DNA of 60,591 bases, the filler included, from Dugesia japonica (lineage: Eukaryota), in NCBI GenBank assembly GCA_001938525.1. It is 5 parts of 5 records of this genome, joined end to end, with 100 filler letters (N's around TTAATTAATTAA, not from the genome) between each part and the next. Parts side by side here need not be neighbours in the genome. Positions count along the whole stretch, not along the records: positions 46,656 to 60,591 come from MQRL01626046.1; 4 more parts are not named here. The stretch is one strand, 5' to 3'. The translations under genes were made by a program, and so were the position numbers. Positions 5,050 through 59,555 of the stretch are shown here, piece after piece. Numbering within the stretch: the stretch's first letter is position 1; every line of letters begins with the position of its first letter. Under the pieces are notes generated by a model. It was not told the origin of the DNA. It searched no databases and saw nothing but the letters and a program-made list of their open reading frames with translations.

Positions 5050-6570
5050 TAGGGTTTTTCAAAACTGTTAAACTTTAACAATAAAACAGCTATTTTTTGG
5101 CTGTTTTTGGAAGTCAAAAATTAAAAAATTTTCTCAATACAAATAATTTGTTATTTAAACAGTAATGATGATTAGAAATGAATTTTTGTAATGATATAAT
5201 ATAAATTTAACTTAATGGAAATTAAAATTTTGAATATTTTTAAAATCCTCTGATTTCAAATAACTACAAAAGTAAGTGAAAATATAAATTGAATAACTTT
5301 TATATTAATAAATAATTTGTTGTTACCAGCAATTTCATCGGTATGAGAATATTCCACAAAGGTAAAAAAAACCCAGAAACCAAAGAGCTAGAAGCTCAAT
5401 GTAAACGATGCAATAAAATTATCAAATATTCAGGGAACTCAACAACATTTAAAACTCATCTTAAGAAACATGGTATGATATCGATAAGTCCTCATAAAAC
5501 ACAACATCCAAAGAACTTCCAAGCGAAAAGGGAACAAAAATTATAACAAAAATAATCATAAGGAAATTATAACAATAGAGCAATCACAAGAAATAATTAT
5601 ATAAGAAGATCGATTCCTCGTGCCGGATATAGGGTTCCTGCTTCTGAACGTGATGTAATAAAACTAGTTTACGAAGATTATGAAGAAAAGAGAAATAAAA
5701 TAATTGCAACCATAAAGGAAAAGCTTGAAAATAGAGTAAAATTTAACATGTGTTGACGAGTACACAACAGTGAGAGGAAGACGATTTTTTGTCGTTAATA
5801 TTCATAGCAGTGGTGAAAGAGCTACAATAAAAACTGGTATTGTGCGTATCCTTCGTGCATGCTCTGCTCTTGATATGTTTGAGGCCATGGACAATCATTT
5901 GGTTGGATTTGGCTAAATTTAGCTTAAGATATTGTTGGATCAACGTGGGACGGTGCTGCTGTCAATAACAAATATATTCTACATATTGATGTAATAAGAT
6001 AATTTTGCTTAAATCATGCTTTGCATTTAGGAGTTTGTGATACATTATATAAAAGAAAAATTCAAGAGGATGAGGATGATGATGATCAGATTATGGATAG
6101 TAATAAAATTGATGATATTGATGAAATTGGAATATTTGATGATGGAATGGATATATAAATGTTAAGTAATGATTCAATAGAGCAAGAAATGTATTATCAC
6201 AATCTATTAGAGAAGACAAGGAAACTTGTTAGCTTTATCAAAAACTACGGTTCGCAATTATGTGGAACGCGTATTTTCAGTATGCAGTAACTTTTGCACT
6301 AAAATAAGATCACGCCTTTCTGATAGACCACTTCAAGCTCTTGTGTATTTAAAATACTATTATAAGAAGTAAAAATGTAATAGTTAAACGATGCTTTTTA
6401 TATATGATAAAATAAAATGTTAGTTTGCAATAAAATGTTGTCTTTTACTTTAAGAAATTTGAGAAAAATAAAAAACCGTAAAAACAGCTGGTTTTTTCTA
6501 AAAATAAAAACAGTAACAGCTGTTTTTTTGAAAACCACTGTTTTTGAAANNNNNNNNNNNNNNNNNNNNN
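5050..6570 (+). mobile_element. Internally deleted hAT transposon (BED finger, DDE remnants, dimerisation domain)
   Basis: Left end TAGGGTTTTTCAAAAC; right end ...TTTTTGAAA next to the gap. Fragments CKRCNKIIKYSGNSTTFKTHLKKHG, VDEYTT, DGAAVN, CLNHALHLGVCDTLY, VERVFSVCSNFCTKIRSRLSD. Confidence 0.8.
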
Positions 6571-9955: not shown

Positions 9956-12220
9956 TTGGTTGTCAGTTAAGTTCGAGCACATTTTCAGTATGTGGAATTA
10001 AAACAGGGTTTTATAAATACGAATGATTGAAAACAAGTCACATATTTTCATATTCTAAAAGATAAATGATATATGTGAGTTAATAAAGATAACACGATTT
10101 ATTAAAATAATCATCGAATGTATTACGCCAATTTAAATATAGAAGAAAATAAAATTCGTTATAAGCGTTTGATGCCTTGCATTTACCGGGAACGTAAAAT
10201 CGCCACAAACATCAAACAAAATATGCGCTGTTTATGGTATAATTGTTTTTATCTGAAATAACTGTAGAAGTAGAATGTTTTATAAACATCGCTTTTATGA
10301 CCCATCGAGGCGACAATATTTTATATGCCAGTCTTCATTCGAAAAAAGTTATGCTCTGTATCTGGTGGGACTGGCAAGGAATTTGGTTTTATGAGTTTCT
10401 ACCAAATATTCTATAAATTCCGAATAGTACTAAAGACAAATAAAACAAACAAATTAAAAGAAAACGTCGGAAGGAAGTCGTGTTTCATTAGGACAATGCG
10501 CGCTCTCATTTGTCTTTGGCTAGTAAAAAAGTGTCTGGAGTTCCCATCATTCTAATTCATCAGATATTGAACCCATAGATTTCCACTTATTTAGGTATTT
10601 GCAAAAAAATAAATTGTAGAATGTTGCGTGAAAGATGGAAAAAGTTTGTAAACAAAATGATAACTATGTAATTTAATGAATGTATATTGAAATTTACAGA
10701 GGTTTGAATCTTTATATTAACAAAATAAAACAATGAATTCAGGATTTTATTTGTTAATAATAGCTAAAAAATACCAAAAACAATCATTGGAATGAAAGAT
10801 TGTAACGTACATGCTTTTTCAATCCATTCTCTAGTAAGATGAAAGAAACCCAAACAAAATTATTTTGAAATATTTCATTCAGACACTCATCAATCGATTC
10901 AGAATGTTGTCGTGAAGCAGTGAATCGGTTTTTATCATGGAAAACTTCTCTGTTTGGTTTAATTGAGGATTGTAAGGTGATAGGTATTTGAAAAAATTTT
11001 AATTTCAAGTAAAATATTCTCAATAGCCGCGCTGTGATAAAACTTTAAAATTTTACTCGGATTCTTTCTAAAATAAGGGATGAGATTTGATTCAAAAAAA
11101 TTAAGAAATATTTCGAAATTAAACGCTCCTCTTTTAACTTGAAATCCCACAACACTACTGGCATTCATTATACATAAACAACTAAGATTTATACCTTCAT
11201 TAGCACCTACATTGAGATATGCTTTTTGATTTATCGCGGAATGGCCATATTTCCTGTTTGTGTGATTATTAAATCCATACTCATCTAAAAAACGAAATTT
11301 TCATTAGGTATTCTAGTGATCGCATTCGCAAATATGGCTCTTTCATTGATTCTTGCAGAAAGATTTAGTTAGCTTGTTTATTTGGCACGATAAAAGAGTG
11401 GTGACATTTATTTCATCTTTTAAAAATATAGAAGAGACATTAAAAAAGTCAATTTCTTTCAATGGGAATAAGAAACAACCGTTTTCTAGTTATACCAATC
11501 TTTTTGAATTTCCTGTATATTGTTGAAACGAACTTAGAAATGTTATGATATTCATTTAATTTCGCTTGAACATCGATAATATCAAGGAATTATTTTTTGA
11601 AATTAAATAATTTAAAATTAATTCTGTATTAGATAGTATAAAATTTCTTCTTCTAATAGTTTCACTTCTTTTCTCCCTTTGTTGATTAATTTGATCAATA
11701 ACCTTTGCAACAGTTTGTCTACATAGACCAAAATCATCTGTTATTTGAGATATTTTATATTCTCCTTGTGAGATATGACTAAGAATATTATTGACCTTTA
11801 TATAAGTACATCGACATATGTATGTGATAATGGGTGAATGCGTAATTGACTGTTTGAATGTTTGTATGATTTTAGTGCTCAGACATTATTGCATAACTGA
11901 TTCTTCAAAAGCTATAAATATTTGTTACAATGTCATTTTGTGTTTAGAATATATATTTTATGCTTAATTCGTTTTCCAAGTCTAACACTCCTGAAGTCAT
12001 TTTTCGTTTGATATTAATCATAAGTTTTTTTTAGTAATTTCCTTTCTTTGTTTTCTTGTCATATGGATGTGGTAATAAAATAAAATAATTGATAATATTT
12101 TAATCTATAAAATTGTTAATATTAAAATGCAAAATTGTTAATATAAAAATGTAAAACTCTGTAAATCTGTTACTTTGGAATTTTCATTACAAATCGAAAC
12201 GAAATTTCCAGACAACCCAA
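9956..12220 (+). mobile_element. Decayed mariner element with a nested IS630-Tc1 element
   Basis: TA-flanked TIRs TTGGTTGTC / GACAACCCAA. Remnant KKVMLCIWWDWQG and a degenerate YSPDIAP-type motif (~10550-10590). Confidence 0.65.
10745..12150 (-). mobile_element. IS630-Tc1-type (DDE) transposase pseudogene nested in the mariner
   Basis: Fragments FLDEYGFN, GAFNFEIFLNFF, YLSPYNPQLN (cf. LPPYSPQLNPIE). Many stops. Confidence 0.65.
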
Positions 12221-13712: not shown

Positions 13713-14982
13713 TTAGGGTGTCACAAAAGTTCGTGGTCACTACAATATGAAATCATATTTATACAAAACAAATATTTATTANAACATTTATAACATGAAT
13801 AAGTCTTCAAAATATAATCCGTTGTGTTGAATTGTCTTTAACCATCTCCCACTTAGTTATTTGATACCATTCATGTACCAATTTGGGCTTTGATGAAAAA
13901 ATTCAGTAATACCGATTCTCACGTCTTCCACATTCTGAAAACTTTTCCCTTGCAAGTAATGAGCCATGGAACGAAAGAGGTAATAATCTGAAGGTGCAAG
14001 GTCCGGACTATATGCTGTATGTGGTAGTGGTTCAATCCCTTTTACTTTCGTTATCTTATTTTTGGTTTGCCAAGCAACATTTGGATGAACATTGTCCTGC
14101 TGTAACAAAACACGTTTTCTGTTTATTAGAGCTGGGTATTTGGTCGCAAGGATTTCATACATACGTTGCAGCTGCTAAACATAAAACTGGGATGTTATTG
14201 CAAGTCCATTTGGAACCAACTCAAGGTGTATGGGGCCCTCGTAATTCCACCAAACACACAAAAAAACCTTAGCAACTGGTATAGGAAGCTCATCAGGGCT
14301 TAACCACTGATTTGGCAAGTCTGGATTCCGGAAGTACACACATTTCTTATCGCAAGTAACTATGGTTTTCATAAATCGTTCATCATTTGTGTAGAGAAGA
14401 AGTTGTTCAAATATTTTCACACGTTTTTCCGCTTGTTCGGGAGTCAGATCATGGGGTACAATTTTGAATCTCCTATTTCTCTTGCCATGAGACAACAGTT
14501 TGCGGTGAACTGAAGATTTCGGAATTTGAAGTTCATCTGAAAACCTCCGGACACTGGTACAGGGATTTTGCTCCACAGAATGCATAATTGTTGTGAAATC
14601 AACTGTTGAGAGTCTTCCAGAACGTTGCTCATTATTAAGATCTGCATTACCAGAATTTAAATTTTTAAACCATTTGATAGCTGCGCTTTTACTCACGAAT
14701 TTGGCTCCTTCAACTTCACATATTTCAACTGCGGCAGCTCTGGCACTGAATACTTTTTTCCAATAATGGAGTAATAGTATGCGAATAGGAGATTTTTGAT
14801 AAATTTTCATATTATTCTGGAATACTAACAAAAAAATATTAGATCAATATTTTTTATTTATATTACTTTTTATGTCCTTTAAAAATAAAACTAAATAAGT
14901 TTAATTTATTAAACTATTTAAGCAATTTAACTATAAATATTATACTTTCAAAAAATGACCACAAACTTTTGGGACACCCTAA
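13713..14982 (-). mobile_element. Near full-length mariner element (D,D34D transposase, frameshifted)
   Basis: TIRs TTAGGGTGTCACAAAAGTTCGTGGTCA / TGACCACAAACTTTTGGGACACCCTAA, ~1.27 kb. ORFs 14175-14831 (VPHDL, IVTCDKK, VFLCVWW) and 13857-14162 (LQQDNVHP, YSPDLAPSDY). Confidence 0.92.
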
Positions 14983-31355: not shown

Positions 31356-31782
31356 ATGAGTGAAACTGTTCATCCAGCGGTTGCAGACGTAATTTGAAAA
31401 TTATTTTTGCTAGTTGTAATTTTAAGTATTTTATTAGTACAAATCAATTAAAGTTACTGGGTTAAAACCAGGAGAAAAAAAATATTGGTGTGCCTGTGGT
31501 TTAAGTAAAAATCAGCCATGGTGTGATGGTTCACACAAAGATACTGGTATAACTCCATTAGAGTTTGTCGTTCCAGAATTAAAACCAGGAGAAAATGCTG
31601 AAACTAAAGGTTATGGAATGTGTCAATGCAAGCATAGTAAAAACAAGCCGTTTTGTGATGGATCACATAAAAAATTACAACCAATTGTAGCGGATAGAAT
31701 AAAGGAGTGTAGTAAAAACGGCCATCTTGAAAAAGGCCAGAAAAAGTTGTGTACGAATTGCGGCCATGTTCCTGATTTTTAA
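31356..31782 (+). CDS. CISD3: CDGSH iron-sulfur domain protein 3 (MiNT-like, two CDGSH domains); exons 31356-31388 and 31438-31782 (possible further 5' exons)
   Basis: 49-nt GT-AG intron. [11 protein letters not shown]|[40 protein letters not shown]...[21 protein letters not shown]...[10 protein letters not shown]. Missing from the supplied ORF track. Confidence 0.9.
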
Positions 31783-34448: not shown

Positions 34449-35246
34449 TTATTTTGTAAATTTTATTCCATATCCAATTTCTGCACCACCAGATACAGGA
34501 ATGTCCGATCCAGTTATGTGCTTAGCCATTTCTGAAGCTAGAAACATGCATGCATTCGCAACATCAATAGGTTCTCCAAGGTTACCAAGTGGTATTAATT
34601 TTTTCATTTTGTCAATTTCATTTTCATAAATAAGTCCACCTTTTATTCTACAGTTATCAATGGTATTTTGCACAAGTAAAGGCGTATTAATGATACCAGG
34701 AGATATACAGTTTACACGTACTCCATTTTCCGCTTCATCCAAAGCCAATGATTTCGTCATAGCCGTTATAGCCCCTTTAGTAATAGCATATGTCACTGCA
34801 TTCCTTTGACCAATCGAACCAACCTGGCTGCTCATATTAATTATGCATCCGCGGTATTTTCTCAGCATCGGCAATGAGTACTTTGAAAACAAAAAATGGC
34901 TTTTAACGTTAATACTGAACAACAAGTCAAGATCGGAACTAGAAAAATCATCTATTTTCCTATCTTCTGGATGAGTGCCAACGTTATTTATTAAACAATC
35001 TAATTTACCACCGTGCACATTTTCTAAATAGTTAATAACTGATTTTATATCATTCTCTACAGTAACATCACAGAACAAAAACATAATATTTCGCCCATTT
35101 AATTCGTTAACTATTTTGTTACCATTCTTTTCATCATTTGAACAGAAAATAACAGTTGCATTAGTACTAGCAAATTGTTTAACACAAGCAGCACCAATTC
35201 CTGAAGTGCCACCTACTATTAAAATTATTTTGTTATCGAAATTCAT
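34449..35246 (-). CDS. HSD17B14: Short-chain dehydrogenase/reductase, HSD17B14 (L-fucose dehydrogenase)-like, intronless
   Basis: Intact 265-aa ORF: GGTSGIG, NNVGTHP, SS..G.IGQ, YAITK, ALDE...GVRVNCISPG and C-terminal GGAEIGYG typical of HSD17B14. Confidence 0.85.
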   Translation of the reverse strand: MNFDNKIILIVGGTSGIGAACVKQFASTNATVIFCSNDEKNGNKIVNELNGRNIMFLFCDVTVENDIKSVINYLENVHGGKLDCLINNVGTHPEDRKIDDFSSSDLDLLFSINVKSHFLFSKYSLPMLRKYRGCIINMSSQVGSIGQRNAVTYAITKGAITAMTKSLALDEAENGVRVNCISPGIINTPLLVQNTIDNCRIKGGLIYENEIDKMKKLIPLGNLGEPIDVANACMFLASEMAKHITGSDIPVSGGAEIGYGIKFTK

Positions 35247-44011: not shown

Positions 44012-46411
44012 TCAGAAGCTTAAAATAAATAATGTCCATTTGCCTTGTGCTATTGTCTTGTGATCTGTTCTCACCAAAAGTCTTTTTCGATACAAATATC
44101 GTTTAAAATGGTTACAAAAATAGTAAATGGTCAATAATTCCTTTCTTGTTATACCATATCCTTTTTCATGATCTGATATTGCATGTGACCCATATGCAAT
44201 GACTTCTACTAAACCATTTTCATTTATTTGCGATAAAACTGCTTCAATTGCATCAAAACTCGCATCTGTGTCTAGTACAAACATCTTTTTGATATCTGGG
44301 AAGCTCAATATCGGTGCTTTTGGTAATGTCTCTTTTATCTCATTAAAAGCTTTATCACAATTTTTAGACCACACAAATTTTTTATTGTTACTTCTACATA
44401 GCTCTTCCAAGCTTCTAGCTTTCTTTCAGTAATTATTGATAAATCGTCTATAGTAATTGCATATTCCCAAAAGCTTCTTAAGTTCTTCACACATTTAGGT
44501 CTTCCAAAATTTTTTATCGCTTCAATTTTTGTTGGATCAGTTTGGACTTCATTCTTGTCTATGACTTGTCCAACAAATTTGACTTCTGCTGGCAATAAAT
44601 GAAATTTTTCTGGATTAATTCTCAACCCTGATTGTTGAATTCTTTTAAAAATTAGGTCTAAAATTTTATAGTGCTGCTCTAAAGTTTCTGAAAATATCAA
44701 TATATCATCCCTGTATACCATTGTTCCTCTAAATCTTCCTAATACTTTTGTCATTAGTTCTTGAAACGTTCCAGGTGCTGCAGCTTTACCAAAAATCATT
44801 TTTGTGAAACAATACTGTCCAATTTTTGTAGAAAATTCTGTTTTCTCTTGTGAATCTTTATGTAACGGAACTTGATAATATGCATTACCCAAATCAATAG
44901 TACTAAAATATTTTGCACCACTCAAATCGTCTAGTATTTCCTCTACATTTGGCATCAAAAATGCCTGTTTTTCTGTGATTGCATTCAGTTTTCTGAAATC
45001 TAGACATGATCTATCGTCTTTCCTTTTTTTTCCAACAAATATTAACCGAGTGTTCCATTGAGAATTACACTTCCTAATAATGCCATAGTCAAAAAAATTC
45101 TTGATAGCTTCATCGATATTATTCTCTAAATGCATTGGTTGTCTCCATGGTTTCGTATTTATTGGTTCTTCATTTGTAATTATTTGATGTTCTGCCGATA
45201 TCCCAGTTGTCTGCCATGAATATATCTTTATGAATCATTATAACTTTCTCTAAATTCTCATTTGGCTTGTTAATCAATATTTTTATTNNNNNNNNNNNNN
45301 NNNNNNNNNNNNNNNNNNNNNNNNNNNNNNNNNNNNNCTGTTTTCTCTTGTGAATCTTTATGTAACGGAACTTGATAATATGCATTACACAAATCAATAG
45401 TACTAAAATATTTTGCACCACTCAAATCGTCTAGTATTTCCTCTACATTGGACATCAAAAATGCCTTGTTTTCTGTGATGGCATTCAGTTTTCTAAAATC
45501 TAGACATGATCTATCGTCTTTCCTTTTTATTCCAACAAATATTAACCGAGTGTTCCATTGAGAATTACACTTCCTAATAATGCTATAGTCAAAAAATTTT
45601 TTGATAGCTTCATCGATATTATTCTCTAAATGCATTGGTTGTCTCCATGGTTTCATATTTATTGGTTCTTCATTTGTAATTATTTGATGTTCTGCCGATA
45701 TCCCAGTTGTCTTCCATGAATATATCTTTATGAATCATTATAACTTTCTCTAAATTCTCATTTGGCTTGTTAATCAATATTTTTATTNNTCTCTATACTC
45801 TCTTTTCATCCGTTGTATTACGTCCATACTTTGCTTTTATATTACAAAGACACATTTATTTCTTCAGTTTTTACTTCGTCTTGTATGTCTTCCAATTCTT
45901 TTATTGTTTTAAATACATCGTCTACTTTTTCTATTTTTCCTGATTTGATTTTATGTTTGATCTTTTTGTCGTTGTAACTATTTATTATTAGCTCTTTTGT
46001 TAAGTTCTCATTGTTCCATTTATAAGCCATTAACTTTTCTACCAATCCTTCAATCTTCTTCTTATCGATATTTATATGCTCTCCATTCCTTCGATAATTT
46101 AGAGCTTTCTCCATATCTTTAATCATTGTTGATGGCTTAAAGAAAGCCTTTGTGAATCTTTCTTCAAATCCCAATGATTCGTCTTCATTTTTAAAGATTT
46201 CACACAGTTCTTTATCTATGAAAGCAACTACAAACCAACTCCTTTGGCCTTTCTTTGTTCTGTTTATATTAAAATACTTCGTTGTCGTCAGGATAAATGT
46301 TTCGATATCATCGCCCAATTTGAAAATTCTGGGGTTTATGGCTTCTTTTAGCAAATCTAATGATGCGTTGGTCGCCATATAAGTTAAATTCCAAACCTCA
46401 GAACTCTCCAT
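44012..46411 (-). mobile_element. Gypsy LTR retrotransposon remnant: gag (45842-46411), RT (44335-45135), RNase H (44012-44410); protease deleted; RT start duplicated across a gap
   Basis: CLDFRKLN, FSTIDLGNAYYQV, YRDD (degenerate YLDD), LDTDAS, EL, RTDHK. PBS-like TGGCGACCA at ~46369-46377. Confidence 0.9.
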
Positions 46412-46555
46412 AAATTGTATTTATTATTACAAGTGTATTTGATTAAAATAAAAATTATGTCAAGAATAATTCATAGTATTAAAACAAATAATCTGAGAAA
46501 TTTTTCAATAAAACAATAATTAATAAATATTCTACTTTACATAAAAATTTATAAA

Positions 46556-46655
46556 NNNNNNNNNNNNNNNNNNNNNNNNNNNNNNNNNNNNNNNNNNNNT
46601 TAATTAATTAANNNNNNNNNNNNNNNNNNNNNNNNNNNNNNNNNNNNNNNNNNNN
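46556..46655. other. Artificial contig linker
   Basis: N44-TTAATTAATTAA-N44. Confidence 0.9.
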
Positions 46656-46760
46656 CTGATCAAAAAAAAAATTTGATCCCAAAAATCATACCACCAAAAA
46701 TAGTGCCCTCATCGTAATGTGTTTCCGAATGTGCGGGCAGTGTGCCGCTATCCCCCTACT

Positions 46761-47010
46761 TACATGATCCACGTAAGTGACTTCCTCCTCAGCCCATTTA
46801 CATTTTGTATGTTTTAATTAAATATTTGCTTTTTCTTATCTAGTAAACACCTCTTCCAAATTTCCGAGATGTTCATTGAAAGTTTCTGAGAAGACTAATA
46901 TGTCATCACTGTACACCATAGCGAATGGTACATCTTCTTAAATTTTATTCATAATTCTTTGAAATGTTTCCGGAGCTCCTGTGCCACCAAATGGCATTAG
47001 ATTATAAGTA
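46761..47010 (-). mobile_element. Gypsy RT fragment between two AGTAG-type termini
   Basis: MPFGGTGAPETFQRIMN...VYSDDILVFS...KC. Confidence 0.75.
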
Positions 47011-51858: not shown

Positions 51859-52045
51859 CTAGTTTTGTATTTTCTGGATTAAAATTTTCAAATCTGAAAT
51901 TATATTATAAACTTGATTTTGATAATATAAACTCTTGAGACCGAGTATTACAACTTTTCCACTAGCAAATACATTAACACAAGTAGGATTGTAGTTAGTA
52001 AGTCTCAATGCTGAAAATGATTCGGGTTCATACACACACTTGGTT
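51859..52045 (-). pseudogene. Divergent TATA-box binding protein (TBP)-like C-terminal repeat, 5'-truncated
   Basis: YEPESFSALRLTNYNPTCVNVFASGKVVILGLK versus canonical TBP repeat 2 [34 protein letters not shown]. Confidence 0.7.
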
Positions 52046-52049
52046 ATTC

Positions 52050-52880
52050 TTGCTGCCATTTAGAATTATGTGATTTTGGTCCCCTCTTCATCTTCTTTAT
52101 TTTTTCTATTTTTTCTTCTATTTTATGCCATTCCTGTTTTTCTTCGGTTGGTGGCAATGTTCGTTGGCCTTGGTATTCATTAAACACGGCTTCCTTTAGA
52201 TGAGCTAATTGACGACCTTGGTAATCAACTTTGTATATCAGGGTTGATGTACCTGTATGACATGATCCATCTGCTGTCTTGCAGTATGATCTCCCTTTCA
52301 TAGTCAAGTCTTTGCGTCGAAGAATGGTTCATATTCTTTGAGTTCTACTGTATAAGTCTCGATCGCTACGGCAAATTACCATACTTTACCTCTTATGATA
52401 TATGTTCCGTATTCGCAGTTGCCCTTATGTGAAGATATGCTACCCGCTGCTTATATCAGTTGGTCAATTACATGGCCTTTTTTGTTGAGGACTTGAGCTC
52501 CGGGTTTGATAGTAATTTTACCTGTTGTGAATCCTTCTTCACATTGCTGTCCTGTCAAGTGTACAGGATGTTTTACTGTCCCTGGATTAATTATCGATGT
52601 GTAACTGTGGTAACCGCAATGAAATATGAATGTCTTCACTGTCACTATGCATTCGTGTATTTGAGACTTATATTAATCTGATTCCTGATACAAATGGTAA
52701 ACTGAGTTATTTCGGAGTGAGATTTTTTCTGGATTTGCATCTGGATATTCCTCTGTGTCTATTAATGAGAATATCTGTTTTCCCACTTGCATACCATCAC
52801 AATAATATACCAATATGGCTTCACTTCTGCCCATCATTAAGAATAACAAAAATATCGAAGTGGTTAAAGCTTGCCAAGAA
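52050..52880 (-). pseudogene. Envelope glycoprotein, chuvirus-G-like (class III fusogen), N-terminal ~270 aa
   Basis: Signal peptide SIFLLFLMMGRSEA|ILVYYCDG...FSLIDTEE...LYQ...ECIVTVKTFIFHCGYHSYTSI...QQCEEGFTTG...AGSISSHKGNCEYG...W..AV...YCKTADGSCHTG. The Cys/motif spacing matches the chuvirus-like glycoprotein pattern (GYDC...SLL...LLQ...C...YCGMHSH...C...G.C...W.NVV...C...G.C) as I recall it. Confidence 0.65.
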
Positions 52881-52979
52881 TTTCGTTGAGGCAGTCGTGT
52901 CCACCCAATTTCAATTTAATTTAGTTGATCTCATACGATTCAGATTACTCTAGTTTCGCTTTCATAGGATGGCTGTGGC

Positions 52980-53397
52980 TTAAGGCATATTGCCTCAATA
53001 AACTTTTTCCAGCCCCCGTGTTGCTTTATTAGCGGTACAATTTTATTCTGCATCAGATCTACTATGGGTAGCTTACTGAGAATGAAGTTTTTTGACGGCT
53101 TACTTCTGGTTATAGATAAATGTGTTTGATTGATCAAATATGCGATAGATACTAATATCCTTCTTTTGTTGGCTCATCTTGTAATAATTCATCTAATACT
53201 CCCCTCAGGTTATCTCTCGTACCATAGCTGGTACCTTTATTAGCGGGAAATTTCTTGATGGCCGATTCCAATTCCTTTACCAATGGTCTGAGACTGTCAG
53301 ATAGCTGGAATTTCCCAATCCTTATTTTCAGTTCCGGATATAACATTAATAACAATTGTCGGATCACTATTTCTGTTGGCATATCGTCCTCTGCCAA
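52980..53397 (-). pseudogene. Bcl-2-family domain split by a 1-nt frameshift at ~53162
   Basis: BH3-like LSDSLRPLVKELE. BH1-like LRGVLDELLQDEPTK(G)RILVSIAY, restored by one G (AAA G[G]A AGG ATA TTA). BH2-like IVPLIKQHGGWKKFIEAI. Confidence 0.75.
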
Positions 53398-55873
53398 ATT
53401 TCCGCTATATTATTCTTGTGACACTGCTGCTAATCTCTTGGTTTGGTGGTTTACCGATGTTGCCAATCTTTTTTCTTTTAACGCCTCTTCCTCTTCCGGT
53501 TGTCCCAGAGGTTTTGTTATAGGCCTACCTCTACTTTTAGGTTCAGTAATTGTTTCCGCATCCACTCTTGTTAGTGCTGGTTTTGGTGGTGCATCTTCTT
53601 CCGTTTCTGTTGGGTTTTTCATTTCTAATGGGTGCTTTTGATCCATTAATTCATCCATTACCGATGAGGGAAATTCCTTTGCTATTTTGCTCAATATTGG
53701 TGACAATAGCTGTTCCTCTAACACTGATTTTGTTGTGATTATTGGTAGGTCGTCGATGTTCTGTGTTTTCTGGTTCTCTTTTATCTGTTCCTTGATACCC
53801 GTCAATACTCCGTTTACGTATAATTCGGTTATTTCCTCCATTCGATCCTCTAAATCTGGTGGCTGGGTTGTCTGTGGCTCCTCCTCTACATCTAACTCGC
53901 AGATTTCTCCTGACTTTGCATGGCATTGAAATATGTGTTTATCTTCGTCATCGTTTTCAACCAATTTACCATTTATGTATAAAGGTTCCATTGTTAATCC
54001 ACACTCTTACCACTTGTCGGTAACGGCATCCATTAAATCCATCATGTTTATTCCTTGTGGCTTTAATCGACTTTACTTAGTCATGTCCTGCTTATTCTTG
54101 CCTATATTCAAGTATAATGTATAATCCTGAATGTTGGTAGCCGCCGATATTTCCTCAGCATATTTCTGTCTAATTGTGAGCCATTGATTTTCGATTTCTT
54201 CTGGTATTTCCATCCCATCGTATATATCGTAAATTCTATTCATTATCATCCAATAGGTTTCTCAGGGTAACTTTTCTTTATCCGCTTGTACTCTGTTAAC
54301 CATTTCCTCTACTTTACGCATCGCTACTACTTCTCTTGATGCCATTTGCCGCATCCTTATCATTCTCTTCTCTCCAACCGTTGTTTGAGTATGTTTTCTC
54401 TCCTCTTCTGTCAGCTTATCTTTCTTTCCCAATACTATAGAAAGTATTTTTATCTTGATTGGTTCTATCTCTTGTTTATATAGGTGTTCCATTTCTCCCA
54501 TGATTTCTAGTGCAGATCTTCCGTTTTTTGTTACCCACACATCATAATCTATACCAGGATGTTTATCTAATATTATTAATTCGATTTCCTCTCCTGGTTT
54601 CACTCCGTAATCATATAAATGATTTTTTCTCGCGCTGAAATCTACTAGAGCACTTGGGATGCATACACATTTATCTTCTAAATACGGATAGCCTGCCTGA
54701 CCCAAGGGCCGATTCCAAGTCTTCTACCAATAATCCATTGAGCGTTAATTTCATATTTCCTTCTGGGTTGTATAACCATAATTGGTAGTCTGACAATCCC
54801 ATGTTTGATATTAACCAATCAAAGTGTACTAGCAACCTCTCTGTCTATTTGCTCTCGAAATTGGTAACCAATTTTATAACCTCTAGTAACTCCTTCTATC
54901 GATTAGTTAATTTGAAATATACTTCTTTCTTAATTGTATAGTAAAGTTTCTGGGCGCCTGTTAGTATCTCATCGATTCGAGCTAATGATAATCGTGATGC
55001 TTCCTTTTGTTCTACCTTAGGATAGTTCATCAATCTCACTTCCTTGAGTCGTTGTTTCTGGTTTTCGTGAGACTTTGCGGGAATTATTTCCTTAAGGAAT
55101 GTTTCTTCTAGTTTATGATATAACCCGATAGTATCTATTTCCTGGAATACTATTTGTGGTCTTTATACCAAACCCCAATTTATTAGTTTAATTAATGTTG
55201 CTTCATGGGGGCGCATTCCGTAGTAAATTAAACTTTTATCATCTGGGAGAATGTTGATCCCTATATTACCGATTTGCAGTCTGTGACAGTTCCGATTTCC
55301 GGTCCATTGATGCTGATCATTAAATAGGGGTAATTTAAAAAATGAATTTACCGTTATTCATTTGATGCCATCCACTTCTCTCCGTTCTATTTCATTAATG
55401 GCTTCTTTTAAGTGTCGTAATCCCTTTGGTGCTAATTTTAATCGTTTTGGGATGAATTCAGGGTTATTATGCCATACACATTGTATTTCAAATCCATAAT
55501 CTTTTAACGCGGTTTCCTTGTATAATTCCGCAATAAAATCCGATATTGTCTTCTACCAGTTTGCTTTTACTTTTGCGTGTACTTGTGGATGTTGGTACAA
55601 CCTGAGCAACTGATACATCACTGGTCTTTTCCCAGTAATGATTGTTGATGCTTCTATTGTTTTGTAAATAATCTCATTAGTCCATTCGAATTCTGGTGAC
55701 GTAATCAGTATTCGGTTCCTGGTGTCTTCCATCATCGTAACTTCCGTGGTTTCATCATATTGGTTATAGATTTGTCTATGAGTTCTAATCATATTACACT
55801 GATTTTTGTGTTGTTCGTTGAGTAAGTTTCTTTTTGCTCACCTCGCTTGTTGCACCTGTAAATCTTGGTTTTG

Positions 55874-56860
55874 CTATTTAAGCCAGTGGTTTTCTTGTTG
55901 GACTTTATTATATACATTGTCATAAGTGTTCTGCTGTACTAAGTTGACCTGTTCTTTATTTTGATTTACTTGTTGCCTTAATCTCTCGTTTTCATGCATC
56001 AAGTTATCCAGATTCGTGTTTGAATTTCGATTGTAACTTGTTTGGTTTCCATTTGGACATTCCTTCGCCATATGGCCTCTTCTGTTACATTTATAACACA
56101 CGGTTGCATTTTTAAGGAAACAAGTTTCTACATTATTATGTGCAAAACCGATTATTGTTGTTGTTGCCTTTGCTTCTGCATTCTCTTGCTATGTGTCTTC
56201 TTCTCCCGCAAGCATTACATTGTATATCTCGGTTGTTTTGCCAATTATTTCGTTGCAAGTTGAATACTCCGCCATTTTCTCCGGGGTAATTTGGCTTAGT
56301 ATTTCTATTACTCAGTTCCTGCACTAGCGACAGAGTTTTCATCATAGACTGGGTATTTGGTATGAAATCCGATATTCGCGGAATGGTTTCTTCAGTCTGA
56401 GCTTCTACATTAAATACTCGTTCTGTTGGCCGATCGGACGCAATTCGCAATATTGCTAATGAATCATGTAACGTTTCTGGTCTACCTAATTTTACAATAG
56501 GTTTTGCGGTTTCGTCTTCCGTTTAGAAAGATGGCTAGTACTTGGCTATCTTCCCATTTTTCTCCTAATGCCAATTTTACTCTTCTCTTGAGTTCCATTA
56601 TATAAGCTTGGTAGGTTTCACCACGTTGTTGTTTCCGGTGAGTAAATTGTTCAAGGTCCTGGCCTGTTAATTTTAGATTTTGAAAATTATCAGTTAAAAT
56701 TTTCTCTACATTTTCCCATCTATCGGGAATACTTTCCATTCCATTGGTGTTATCCCAGAATACGGTTTTAACGACTCTCTTCGCTTCATCGTCCCATCCG
56801 CAGGTTTTGACATACATTTCAAAATTTTGTAAATATTCGTCCAATTTCTCCGGTATTCAG
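55874..56860 (-). pseudogene. Gag: capsid-like region plus CCHC zinc knuckles
   Basis: DEYLQNFEMYVKTCGWDD...RKQQRGETYQAYIMELKR...FLNG; CNACGRRRHIAREC; a partly deleted middle knuckle FC..HNNVETC; CYKCNRRGHMAKEC. Confidence 0.85.
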
Positions 56861-57639
56861 CTAAAATATTCGCCTTCGAATTTTATTTTCCATTCCGGGA
56901 GCTGTGTTTCGGTTTTTGTTGAATTAGTTTTTTCTTTATCGGGATGGAATTTTATTTCAAAATTTTTGGTAACTGGTGGGTTTGTTTAGTTTCCTTGGTT
57001 TTCCTTCGTCTTCTGTGCTTCCTTGGTTACCACTTGCTACNTCTGTTAATTCTATTTCTTTTGATGTATAACTTAGTCCACTTAGTCGGTTTCTATCCGT
57101 TTAAGGGTTACTGAGTGTTCGCCTCTGGATTATTTGATTTTCTTTGTCACTTGTGCTACTGTTGGAACTGATGGTCTCTACGGTTTGTTTATTGGGATCT
57201 GATTTTCCGAGGACACAGATGTCTCCTTCCTGGTCTAAATATAGTGATGTTTTGATTTTCTTCCTCGAGGACTATTTGCGTCTGACTTTTAAAATTGAAC
57301 TTGGTGTAGGTAATCCGTTTGTGCTAGCTCGGGTAGCTGGTTTCCTGTTATCAGAGTGGGAATCTATTTTATTACAGTCCGGCTTGTTAGTTGCCTATTG
57401 CGCTTCCTTAATTTCTTCCTTTTAAATTCCTTAATTAAGTATTCCTTTATTTTTCCTTAATCAAGTCTTTCTTTTAACTGCTAGGTTATCTCTTCCTAAA
57501 TGTGGGAGTACCCATTTTTTCATAGTATAGGCAAACTCTTCTGTTTTCCTTCGTTTTATTCAATGTAATGTAATGTATTCAATGTAATGTAATTCATGGG
57601 GGAGTACCGAGAGTTTTCTTATGGATCGGGGCCCCGTTT

Positions 57640-58230
57640 GAAGAACCCTTTTTCGTGCAGGCGAACGCTTCCGGCTTCTCTTCCTTTATATTCTTCCTCT
57701 AATCAGGCTTCCTTTAGTGTGCTTCTTTTCTTACGTAGGCTTCCTTTAATATGCTTCCTTAATTTTGCTTCTTTCCTCACGTAGACTTCCTTAAATATAC
57801 TTCCTCCTTGTCAGGCTTCCTTTAATATTCTTCCTTGGTGTTTCCTTCCATACGCAGGCTTCCTTAAATATGCGCGCAGAAACATATCCACTATATACCT
57901 AATTATTTCTTCAATTATGGTCCTTAGACAACTGTTGTGGCTACTTTTTACGAAGGTGATAAATCTTCTGATTGCAATTTACCAGTTGGGGATCTATATT
58001 TTCCATAGCTGTGTTCATAGTAAGCATTACTGGATATTCTTCCTAATTTCTTCCTGTTAATCTTCCTTTTATTATATCTTCCTTTAATATCTTCCTTAGT
58101 TTTCCTCCTGATTAGCTTCCTTTGATTTCTTTCTAATTATCTTCCTTCCTGATTAGCTTACTTTAATTTATCTTCCTTTACTTTATCTTCCTGTAATTTA
58201 TCTTCCTGTAGTTTATCCTCCTTCCTGGTT
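57640..58230. repeat. Degenerate short repeats (GGCTTCCTT / ATCTTCCT) in the element leader
   Basis: Many (C)TTCCT(T) units with irregular 12-35 bp spacing. Confidence 0.6.
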
Positions 58231-58836
58231 ATGAATTTCCATGATGATCTCCATGGATATCTCAACATGATCTCTGAAAATATAAAATAACGATTTCTTA
58301 TATATTTTACTTCCTATTTATAACCTGATTTCTATTCTGTTTCATTTACCCTAAATATATTATTTTAATATCATAATAAAACTTCCGAAATTTCTTTCTG
58401 ATTCATTTATTCTCAATATAATACTTTTTGAATTTAAAATTTTAATAATTTATTTATTCAGATATTAATCGTATATTTATTCATTAAAAATGTTAATAAG
58501 ATTTGACATCATATCTTTCTTGATTGATTTATTACACGTCCCTAAAGGTGTTTGTTTCCTGAAAGATTTTGTCAAATCCCGGCTGAACCCACAAAATTCT
58601 TGTTTTGGTTCCACTTGATGGATGNNNNNNNNNNNNNNNNNNNNNNNAGAGGATCCCCCTTCAAGAATTTAATCTAAATTCCCTATTTAGATTTTCGGTA
58701 TAGAGCGGTTGACCTTCAACATTTACTTGAGGTACACGCTCGTATACCTTTAATTCGGGTTCGTTACTTTTCCCTATATCCTAATTAATGACTAAATTAA
58801 TAACGCGTTAAATAACGAAAATTTATTTCTACATAT

Positions 58837-59142
58837 TTACATAAAATCGAGCGCACCCGGGTCTAACCACTGGGTTGGCTCGGGTGGTGTGAAGTCAAAA
58901 GCGGCTTCATCATCCTCGCTGTTCCAGCGAGTCCACGTTTCCTGCTCTAAGCGATTAGATAAATCGGCAATATATTGCTGCAGAAACTCTATCTTATGAT
59001 TCAGGATCTGTTTTGATTGTTCGGCCAGCTCTCCTTGTTTTTTGAATATTAAATCGAGTTTTTTGATCAATCGGTTACGCTGAGTTAAATTTCTCAATAA
59101 AGCTCTCTCATTCTGACGCTTGATATGCCTTTCTAACGGCAA
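58837..59142 (-). CDS. Small coiled-coil ORF just inside the putative 5' LTR, function unknown
   Basis: Uninterrupted 101 codons (TTG start), heptad-like LNHKIEFLQQYIADLSNRLEQ and an acidic/aromatic tail. Confidence 0.4.
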   Translation of the reverse strand: MPLERHIKRQNERALLRNLTQRNRLIKKLDLIFKKQGELAEQSKQILNHKIEFLQQYIADLSNRLEQETWTRWNSEDDEAAFDFTPPEPTQWLDPGALDFM

Positions 59143-59167
59143 CTTTTAGATCAAGCGATCACACCGA

Positions 59168-59555
59168 TGTAAGCTACTTGGGAGTCGAATACGAGGCACT
59201 AAACAATAATCCTAAAACTCTTGAATTTCACGGTGAGCTTCTTAGACTCACCTAACAATATATAATCTTTTATAAATTTAATAAAGTGATAACTGCTGCC
59301 CTGATTTTAATACATATATGTTTAATGATCGTATCCTTAAAATTATTAATGACATTATAAGATGAACAGTATTGTCTATCCTTGAAGTAATATTTAGTAT
59401 AATAAAAGAGAACATTTGTTGAATATGATAACGATGATAATGTCGAAGATTAAAGTCGATAAATAAAAGCTGATCATTAGGATGTAAGAAACCAGAGAGA
59501 GTATAATCGGTAAAAGATTTCTAACGAAATGCATATGAGCATGCACTCTATTACA
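59168..59555 (-). repeat. Putative LTR (388 bp, TGTAA...TTACA)
   Basis: 5-bp inverted termini TGTAA/TTACA upstream of the Gag-containing region. The following sequence TCGGTGTGATCG is only weakly PBS-like, and no second LTR is in the window. Confidence 0.45.

Follow-up and report, generated by a model that had tools for sequence, protein, structure and literature searches.

A decayed, truncated gag-env retroelement copy in Dugesia japonica, likely of the Burro kind, with a likely Bcl-2-fold domain encoded ahead of Env

This study focused on a 60,591-nucleotide stretch of Dugesia japonica DNA (the window), the minus strand of which holds a retroelement copy from about 59257 to 52050. A short segment between its gag and env parts had been read, from the sequence alone, as a Bcl-2-family apoptosis-regulator domain, and the locus raises the question of whether the segment is such a domain and what it did for the element. 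The segment lies in the polyprotein region of a gag-env retroelement that is present in many copies, the one studied here being decayed and truncated. The explanation considered probable is that this is a Burro-like copy, the polyprotein of which likely included a captured Bcl-2-fold domain in front of Env that would have blocked cell death in active copies. The features on which the argument depends are the following.

56518..56769, minus strand: retrotransposon gag domain (PF03732, E 7e-6, over the curated cut-off)
56051..56222, minus strand: two CCHC zinc knuckles in differing frames (PF00098, E 1.1e-5; PF14787, E 4.9e-5)
53164..53409, minus strand: first half of the likely Bcl-2-like domain, an open frame with three predicted helices (alpha1-, alpha2/BH3- and alpha4-like)
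53160..53170, minus strand: approximate place of a frameshift inside the BH1-like region, with different frames on its two sides
52943..53161, minus strand: second half of the likely domain, a predicted alpha5-like helix followed by a helix-GGW-helix, BH2-like end
52152..52897, minus strand: start of the envelope gene, broken and cut short (PF24664, E 2.1e-24)

Along the minus strand the gag domain is followed by the two knuckles, about 2.6 kb in which no family was matched, the Bcl-2-like segment and the start of env, and the G+C content of the element is 37%, against 26-27% in its flanks. The two adjacent open reading frames (ORFs) of the sequence-only reading, 53152-53397 and 52940-53137, exist and lie in different frames; also as described there, between the first half and the upstream ORF 53410-53991 there is one stop (53412), and between the second half and the env signal peptide, which is in the same frame, there are three (52942, 52933 and 52918). 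Reading frames shift repeatedly along the element and stops are frequent, four of them being in frame within the env segment. Because of these lesions, and because env is cut short and pol is absent, the copy is dead, and it makes no Bcl-2-like protein.

Whether the broken frame is a property of the DNA was answered by contigs of public DNA runs, which were aligned to the 7.9-kb element and to 561 bases around the domain. Each run gave about 5,700-6,300 contigs on the element, most of them less than 95% alike, and the 561-base stretch was covered by 388 contigs in run X1 and 341 in run X2, at 80-99% identity, with contigs extending from the domain into the upstream linker. Near-identical contigs from runs of two studies (X1 record 3 and X5 record 15; X1 may be the source of the window, while X5 is from the other study) span the frameshift without a gap, so it is present in the DNA and is not an assembly slip. 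A one-off insertion is ruled out by the coverage in two DNA runs. That the segment is a host Bcl-2 retrocopy sitting in one element copy, or a working gene with an assembly error, is hardly conceivable: nothing was found in its support, and it is largely refuted by the contig coverage, by the continuity into the linker and by the shared frameshift.

The sister copies also show how the segment was read. Among 16 contig pieces listed, apart from 720 further pieces, eight extend across the break. One of them is almost the same as the window sequence, without a gap; the other seven are out of register with the window copy and have both halves in one frame. These seven represent about five distinct copies, two of which recur in both runs. 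Variable places were taken from 40 listed by support, apart from 56 others; 36 fall inside the halves and 20 of these are at third codon positions (p 0.005, one-sided binomial), with 11 of 19 in the first half alone, and the bias vanishes when each half is read in the frame of the other. The third-position bias, together with the shared frame, means that the element family retained the segment as a single coding domain under selection.

What kind of domain was selected is a separate matter. The break was left unrepaired, the halves were searched and folded separately, and motifs were scored across the break with an X. Single-sequence AlphaFold models gave helices at residues 12-23, 40-53 and 65-77 of the first half and at 2-16, 33-48 and 52-60 of the second, that is, three and three in an order like alpha1, 2 and 4 and then alpha5, 6/7 and 8, with the GGW turn before the last; this predicted order fits the Bcl-2 scaffold. 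When the model of the second half was compared with 350,542 PDB chains using Foldseek, only six matches were returned and all six were to Bcl-2-family entries (BAX, four Bcl-2 structures, and one complex of a BCL-2-family protein with an Affimer, whichever of its chains was matched), although they were weak (E 4.8-9.7, 24-29 columns) and are not independent of one another.

The BH3-like and BH2-like stretches of the sequence-only reading were located at 53304-53266 and 53032-53000. The BH2-like motif, with its GGW, agrees at six of eight pattern positions, the first Trp position not being kept, and lies 43 residues from the BH1 arginine, where about 42 are expected. On its own such a six-of-eight match is common, occurring seven times in the window and in 49 per 100 of 300 shuffles. 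When the match was required to have an Arg-hydrophobic-hydrophobic triplet 41-44 residues before it in an open frame, there was one occurrence in the window, at this site, and 0 of 300 shuffles had any, in a post hoc test with patterns and spacing that were chosen after the site had been seen. The BH3-like site also keeps six of eight positions of the BH3 pattern; the two lacking are Gly and Asp, a pair that marks killer BH3 motifs, and their absence was counted for a pro-survival reading, although the pair is not required of all pro-survival or viral members. For BH1 the sequence-only reading fared less well. The flanks of its BH1-like string are at 53199-53164 and 53161-53138, and Arg-Ile-Leu follows the break, but Asn and Trp are not seen before it and the residue quoted at the break was supplied by the reader and is absent from the DNA. 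The proposal that BH1 letter changes alter BH3 specificity is not supported, since one letter falls at the break and the others come from a decayed copy. The order of BH motifs and the GGW of BH2 are described in excerpts of PMC8998228, as is an exon boundary at the GGW in host Bcl-2 genes; the element sequence is continuous through the GGW, as expected of an RNA-derived capture.

Giant gypsy-like long terminal repeat (LTR) elements of planarians, named Burro and GYPSM1, are reportedly treated in Grohme 2018 and Jurka 2007. Planarian Burro is described as having a gag with CCHC knuckles, a Ubi2/SUMO-like and a BCL2-like motif, and an in-frame env before the protease; this env matches mononegavirus fusion proteins, the element has been suggested to meddle with apoptosis, and decaying Burro fragments with stops and frameshifts occur in one dugesiid genome (PMC6431247). 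The sequence-only reading had attributed a BCL2-like domain to Burro and suggested a possible relationship to it, and the published layout, with BCL2-like after ubiquitin-like and env between BCL2 and protease, agrees with this. Like Burro, the present element has a gag with CCHC knuckles, followed by a BCL2-like segment and then, on the gag side of pol, an env of mononegavirus type. In both, env comes immediately after the BCL2-like motif and in the same frame (here with three stops between), and copies are very numerous, including decayed ones with stops and frameshifts. Unlike Burro, which has pol (protease, dUTPase, reverse transcriptase, RNase H and integrase) after env, two LTRs and a length near 30 kb, this copy is cut off in env and has no pol, only two knuckles are seen, and its possible ubiquitin-like part is a guess by eye. 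The element is likely of the Burro kind, a likeness to the published layout by description rather than by sequence comparison. Given the helix order, the six Foldseek matches, the motif pair and a position equal to that of the published BCL2-like motif, the segment very probably has a Bcl-2 fold.

Several results weigh against this assignment or its Burro context. Neither half alone gave a significant match in Pfam, Bcl-2 (PF00452) included, and neither gave a significant Bcl-2 match in PDB sequence searches, in Atlas or with Foldseek (best E 2 to 5); nothing was found for the halves in the VIA fold listing. Both half models are of low confidence (predicted local distance difference test scores of 56 and 64.5), the best match to the BH1 pattern is five of ten and off the expected site, with X masking part of the motif, and searching found no intact relative of the domain. 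The copy ends inside env and lacks pol, so the element is not placeable in a tree, and no MATH, BIR, RING or ankyrin domain like those of Burro1 was detected in the gag-to-env part, 54010-59391, of a copy missing its 3' part. Finally, no Bcl-2 family match was found in the stretch before env of P0001 and P0002, two single-frame gag-env-protease-reverse transcriptase (RT)-RNase H-integrase polyproteins of 3,761 and 3,771 residues from metagenome assemblies (clusters of 7 and 21 members). Their gag-to-env stretch is much shorter than that of the present element, and the in-frame env design thus occurs without such cargo; since these two intact relatives lack it, the Bcl-2-like domain appears to be optional cargo of some lineages. 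Protease-like stretches number three in these polyproteins, one of them lying after the integrase; they also have a C-terminal hydrophobic region and, by eye, a ubiquitin-like stretch.

The negative searches with the halves, the commonness of BH2-like matches alone and the post hoc design of the motif test are what would be expected if the segment were a selected helical polyprotein domain unrelated to Bcl-2, its motifs being look-alikes. This is nevertheless very unlikely, as the position is exactly that of the published BCL2-like motif in this layout, the PDB chains matched by the second half were all from Bcl-2-family entries, and the helix order fits. The claim of a Bcl-2-family domain stands as likely; the profile search with the halves returned nothing significant, and the structural check of the halves gave weak matches, none of them significant.

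A Bcl-2 fold does not by itself imply a role in apoptosis: the poxvirus Bcl-2-fold proteins A46, A52, B14 and K7 bind innate-immune signalling proteins, and the element domain could have done likewise or served as a polyprotein scaffold. The weak BH1 pattern, the absent BH3 Gly-Asp and the lack of a tail anchor of its own point in this direction, and BH1 changes can abolish groove function (PMC8998228, in excerpt). It is, however, an unlikely explanation: conservation is good at the BH2-like end, the chains weakly matched by fold are those of cellular Bcl-2 and BAX, Burro has further cargo directed against cell death, and little weight can be put on BH1 letters taken from a decayed copy.

The preferred explanation, a domain blocking cell death, would work as follows. 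An active element would have made one polyprotein with the Bcl-2-like domain at the end of the cytosolic part, and the domain would have stayed on the cytosolic side. It has no hydrophobic tail right after BH2; the Env signal peptide, about 45 codons on, may have kept it at the membrane, or the element protease may have freed it. Like viral Bcl-2 proteins, it could then have bound pro-death BH3 helices, damping the death of the producing cell. In a hydropathy scan the next hydrophobic peak after BH2 was the signal-peptide-like one (1.45 at 52861), and no long hydrophobic stretch lay in between; this is compatible with anchoring by the Env signal peptide. That this peptide doubles as a tail anchor in active copies, so that a Bcl-2 protein favouring cell survival is left on the cytosolic side of the endoplasmic reticulum membrane with each round of envelope synthesis, is possible but doubtful; if so, a retroelement would be countering cell death in the manner of large DNA viruses and would directly affect the survival of host stem cells. 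A pro-survival role may be inferred for active relatives. Planarians use a Bak/Bcl-2 pathway (excerpts of PMC8998228). The viral Bcl-2 proteins of large DNA viruses are, as here, diverged Bcl-2 folds on mobile genomes that are hard to see by sequence, but they are separate genes with demonstrated binding, whereas the present domain is a polyprotein segment known from sequence (PMC11209288, in excerpt); the word 'retrotransposon' does not occur in the available text of that review.

The env start comprises the first ~240 residues of a fusion glycoprotein of Monjiviricetes (chuvirus) type, together with a stretch that is hydrophobic and signal-peptide-like. It is 35-38% identical to the env of P0001 and P0002, and 27% identical to the G protein of L001, a chuvirus-like genome. 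L001 and L002 are chuvirus-like RNA virus genomes with glycoproteins 25-27% identical to the element env; L001 encodes a polymerase, the glycoprotein and a third ORF. Elements of gag-env-pol order have been described from Nematoda, Bryozoa and Platyhelminthes, among them GAG-ENV-POL errantiviruses with an HSV/gB-type env, which have env between gag and pol as here but are intact, unlike the present copy (excerpts of PMC13524379). The element env shares short motifs, by eye, with two Smed env rows in the portion of that paper available, and 'Bcl' is absent from its main text and seven supplement files.

The remaining features of the element are as follows.

57500..59257, minus strand: probable 5' terminal repeat and leader, inner edge a guess
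~55180-55243, minus strand: second ubiquitin-like look-alike, by eye
54571..54624, minus strand: possible end of a ubiquitin-like domain, presumed by eye from a motif
53410..54006, minus strand: acidic linker ORF, open, in the same frame as the first half

No Pfam family and no relative was found for the linker ORF, and the ubiquitin-like look-alikes had no Pfam or PDB match with queries that were broken sequence. The terminal repeat candidate starts with TG at 59257; contig depth, highest at 57325-58384, is at single-copy level beyond ~59400, and a second LTR of this copy was not found within the window. Close to where the element presumably begins, an ORF of 102 residues (58837-59145, minus strand), without a family match, is possibly an accessory ORF inside the terminal repeat. 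At the other end, env similarity stops near 52150 and a TATA-binding-protein-like fragment comes next (51871-52053, minus strand; PF00352, E 1e-7), directly adjoining the cut env. Its contig depth is very high and RNA reads of run X9 map there with loose ends; it seems to belong to another high-copy repeat.

A neighbouring gene of animal type, the low G+C content of the flanks and the gag-env order point to a planarian host. Elsewhere in the window, an intronless short-chain dehydrogenase lies at 34449-35246 (minus strand; best PDB match 17-beta-hydroxysteroid dehydrogenase 14, E 8e-60), and one open frame at 31438-31782 (plus strand), which is taken to be CISD3-like, has two CDGSH iron-sulfur motifs. 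Another gypsy-type element, broken and including RT and RNase H, occupies 44012-47006 (minus strand); an assembly duplication may explain a 300-base direct repeat spanning an N gap at 44838-45637, and broken mariner-type and Tc1-like DDE transposases are at 13857-14843 and 10959-11885 (minus strand).

BCL2-like cargo of this element type is already in print, and the present copy adds little to that; what it contributes is another instance of the layout, in a family that is decayed and high in copy number, together with evidence of coding selection on the domain. Burro expression and genome composition are treated in PMC8532177 and PMC11410931 (both in excerpt), and the anti-apoptotic B-IAP of Burro1 is reported to protect stem cells (Lee 2026, as cited in excerpts of PMC13465017). 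No functional test of the Burro BCL2-like domain was found in the literature searched, Grohme 2018, Lee 2026 and supplements lying outside that search, and function is better studied on intact elements than on a relic. Should the domain block cell death, the element would have a second means of countering it in addition to B-IAP, and viral Bcl-2 would have a counterpart in a retroelement.
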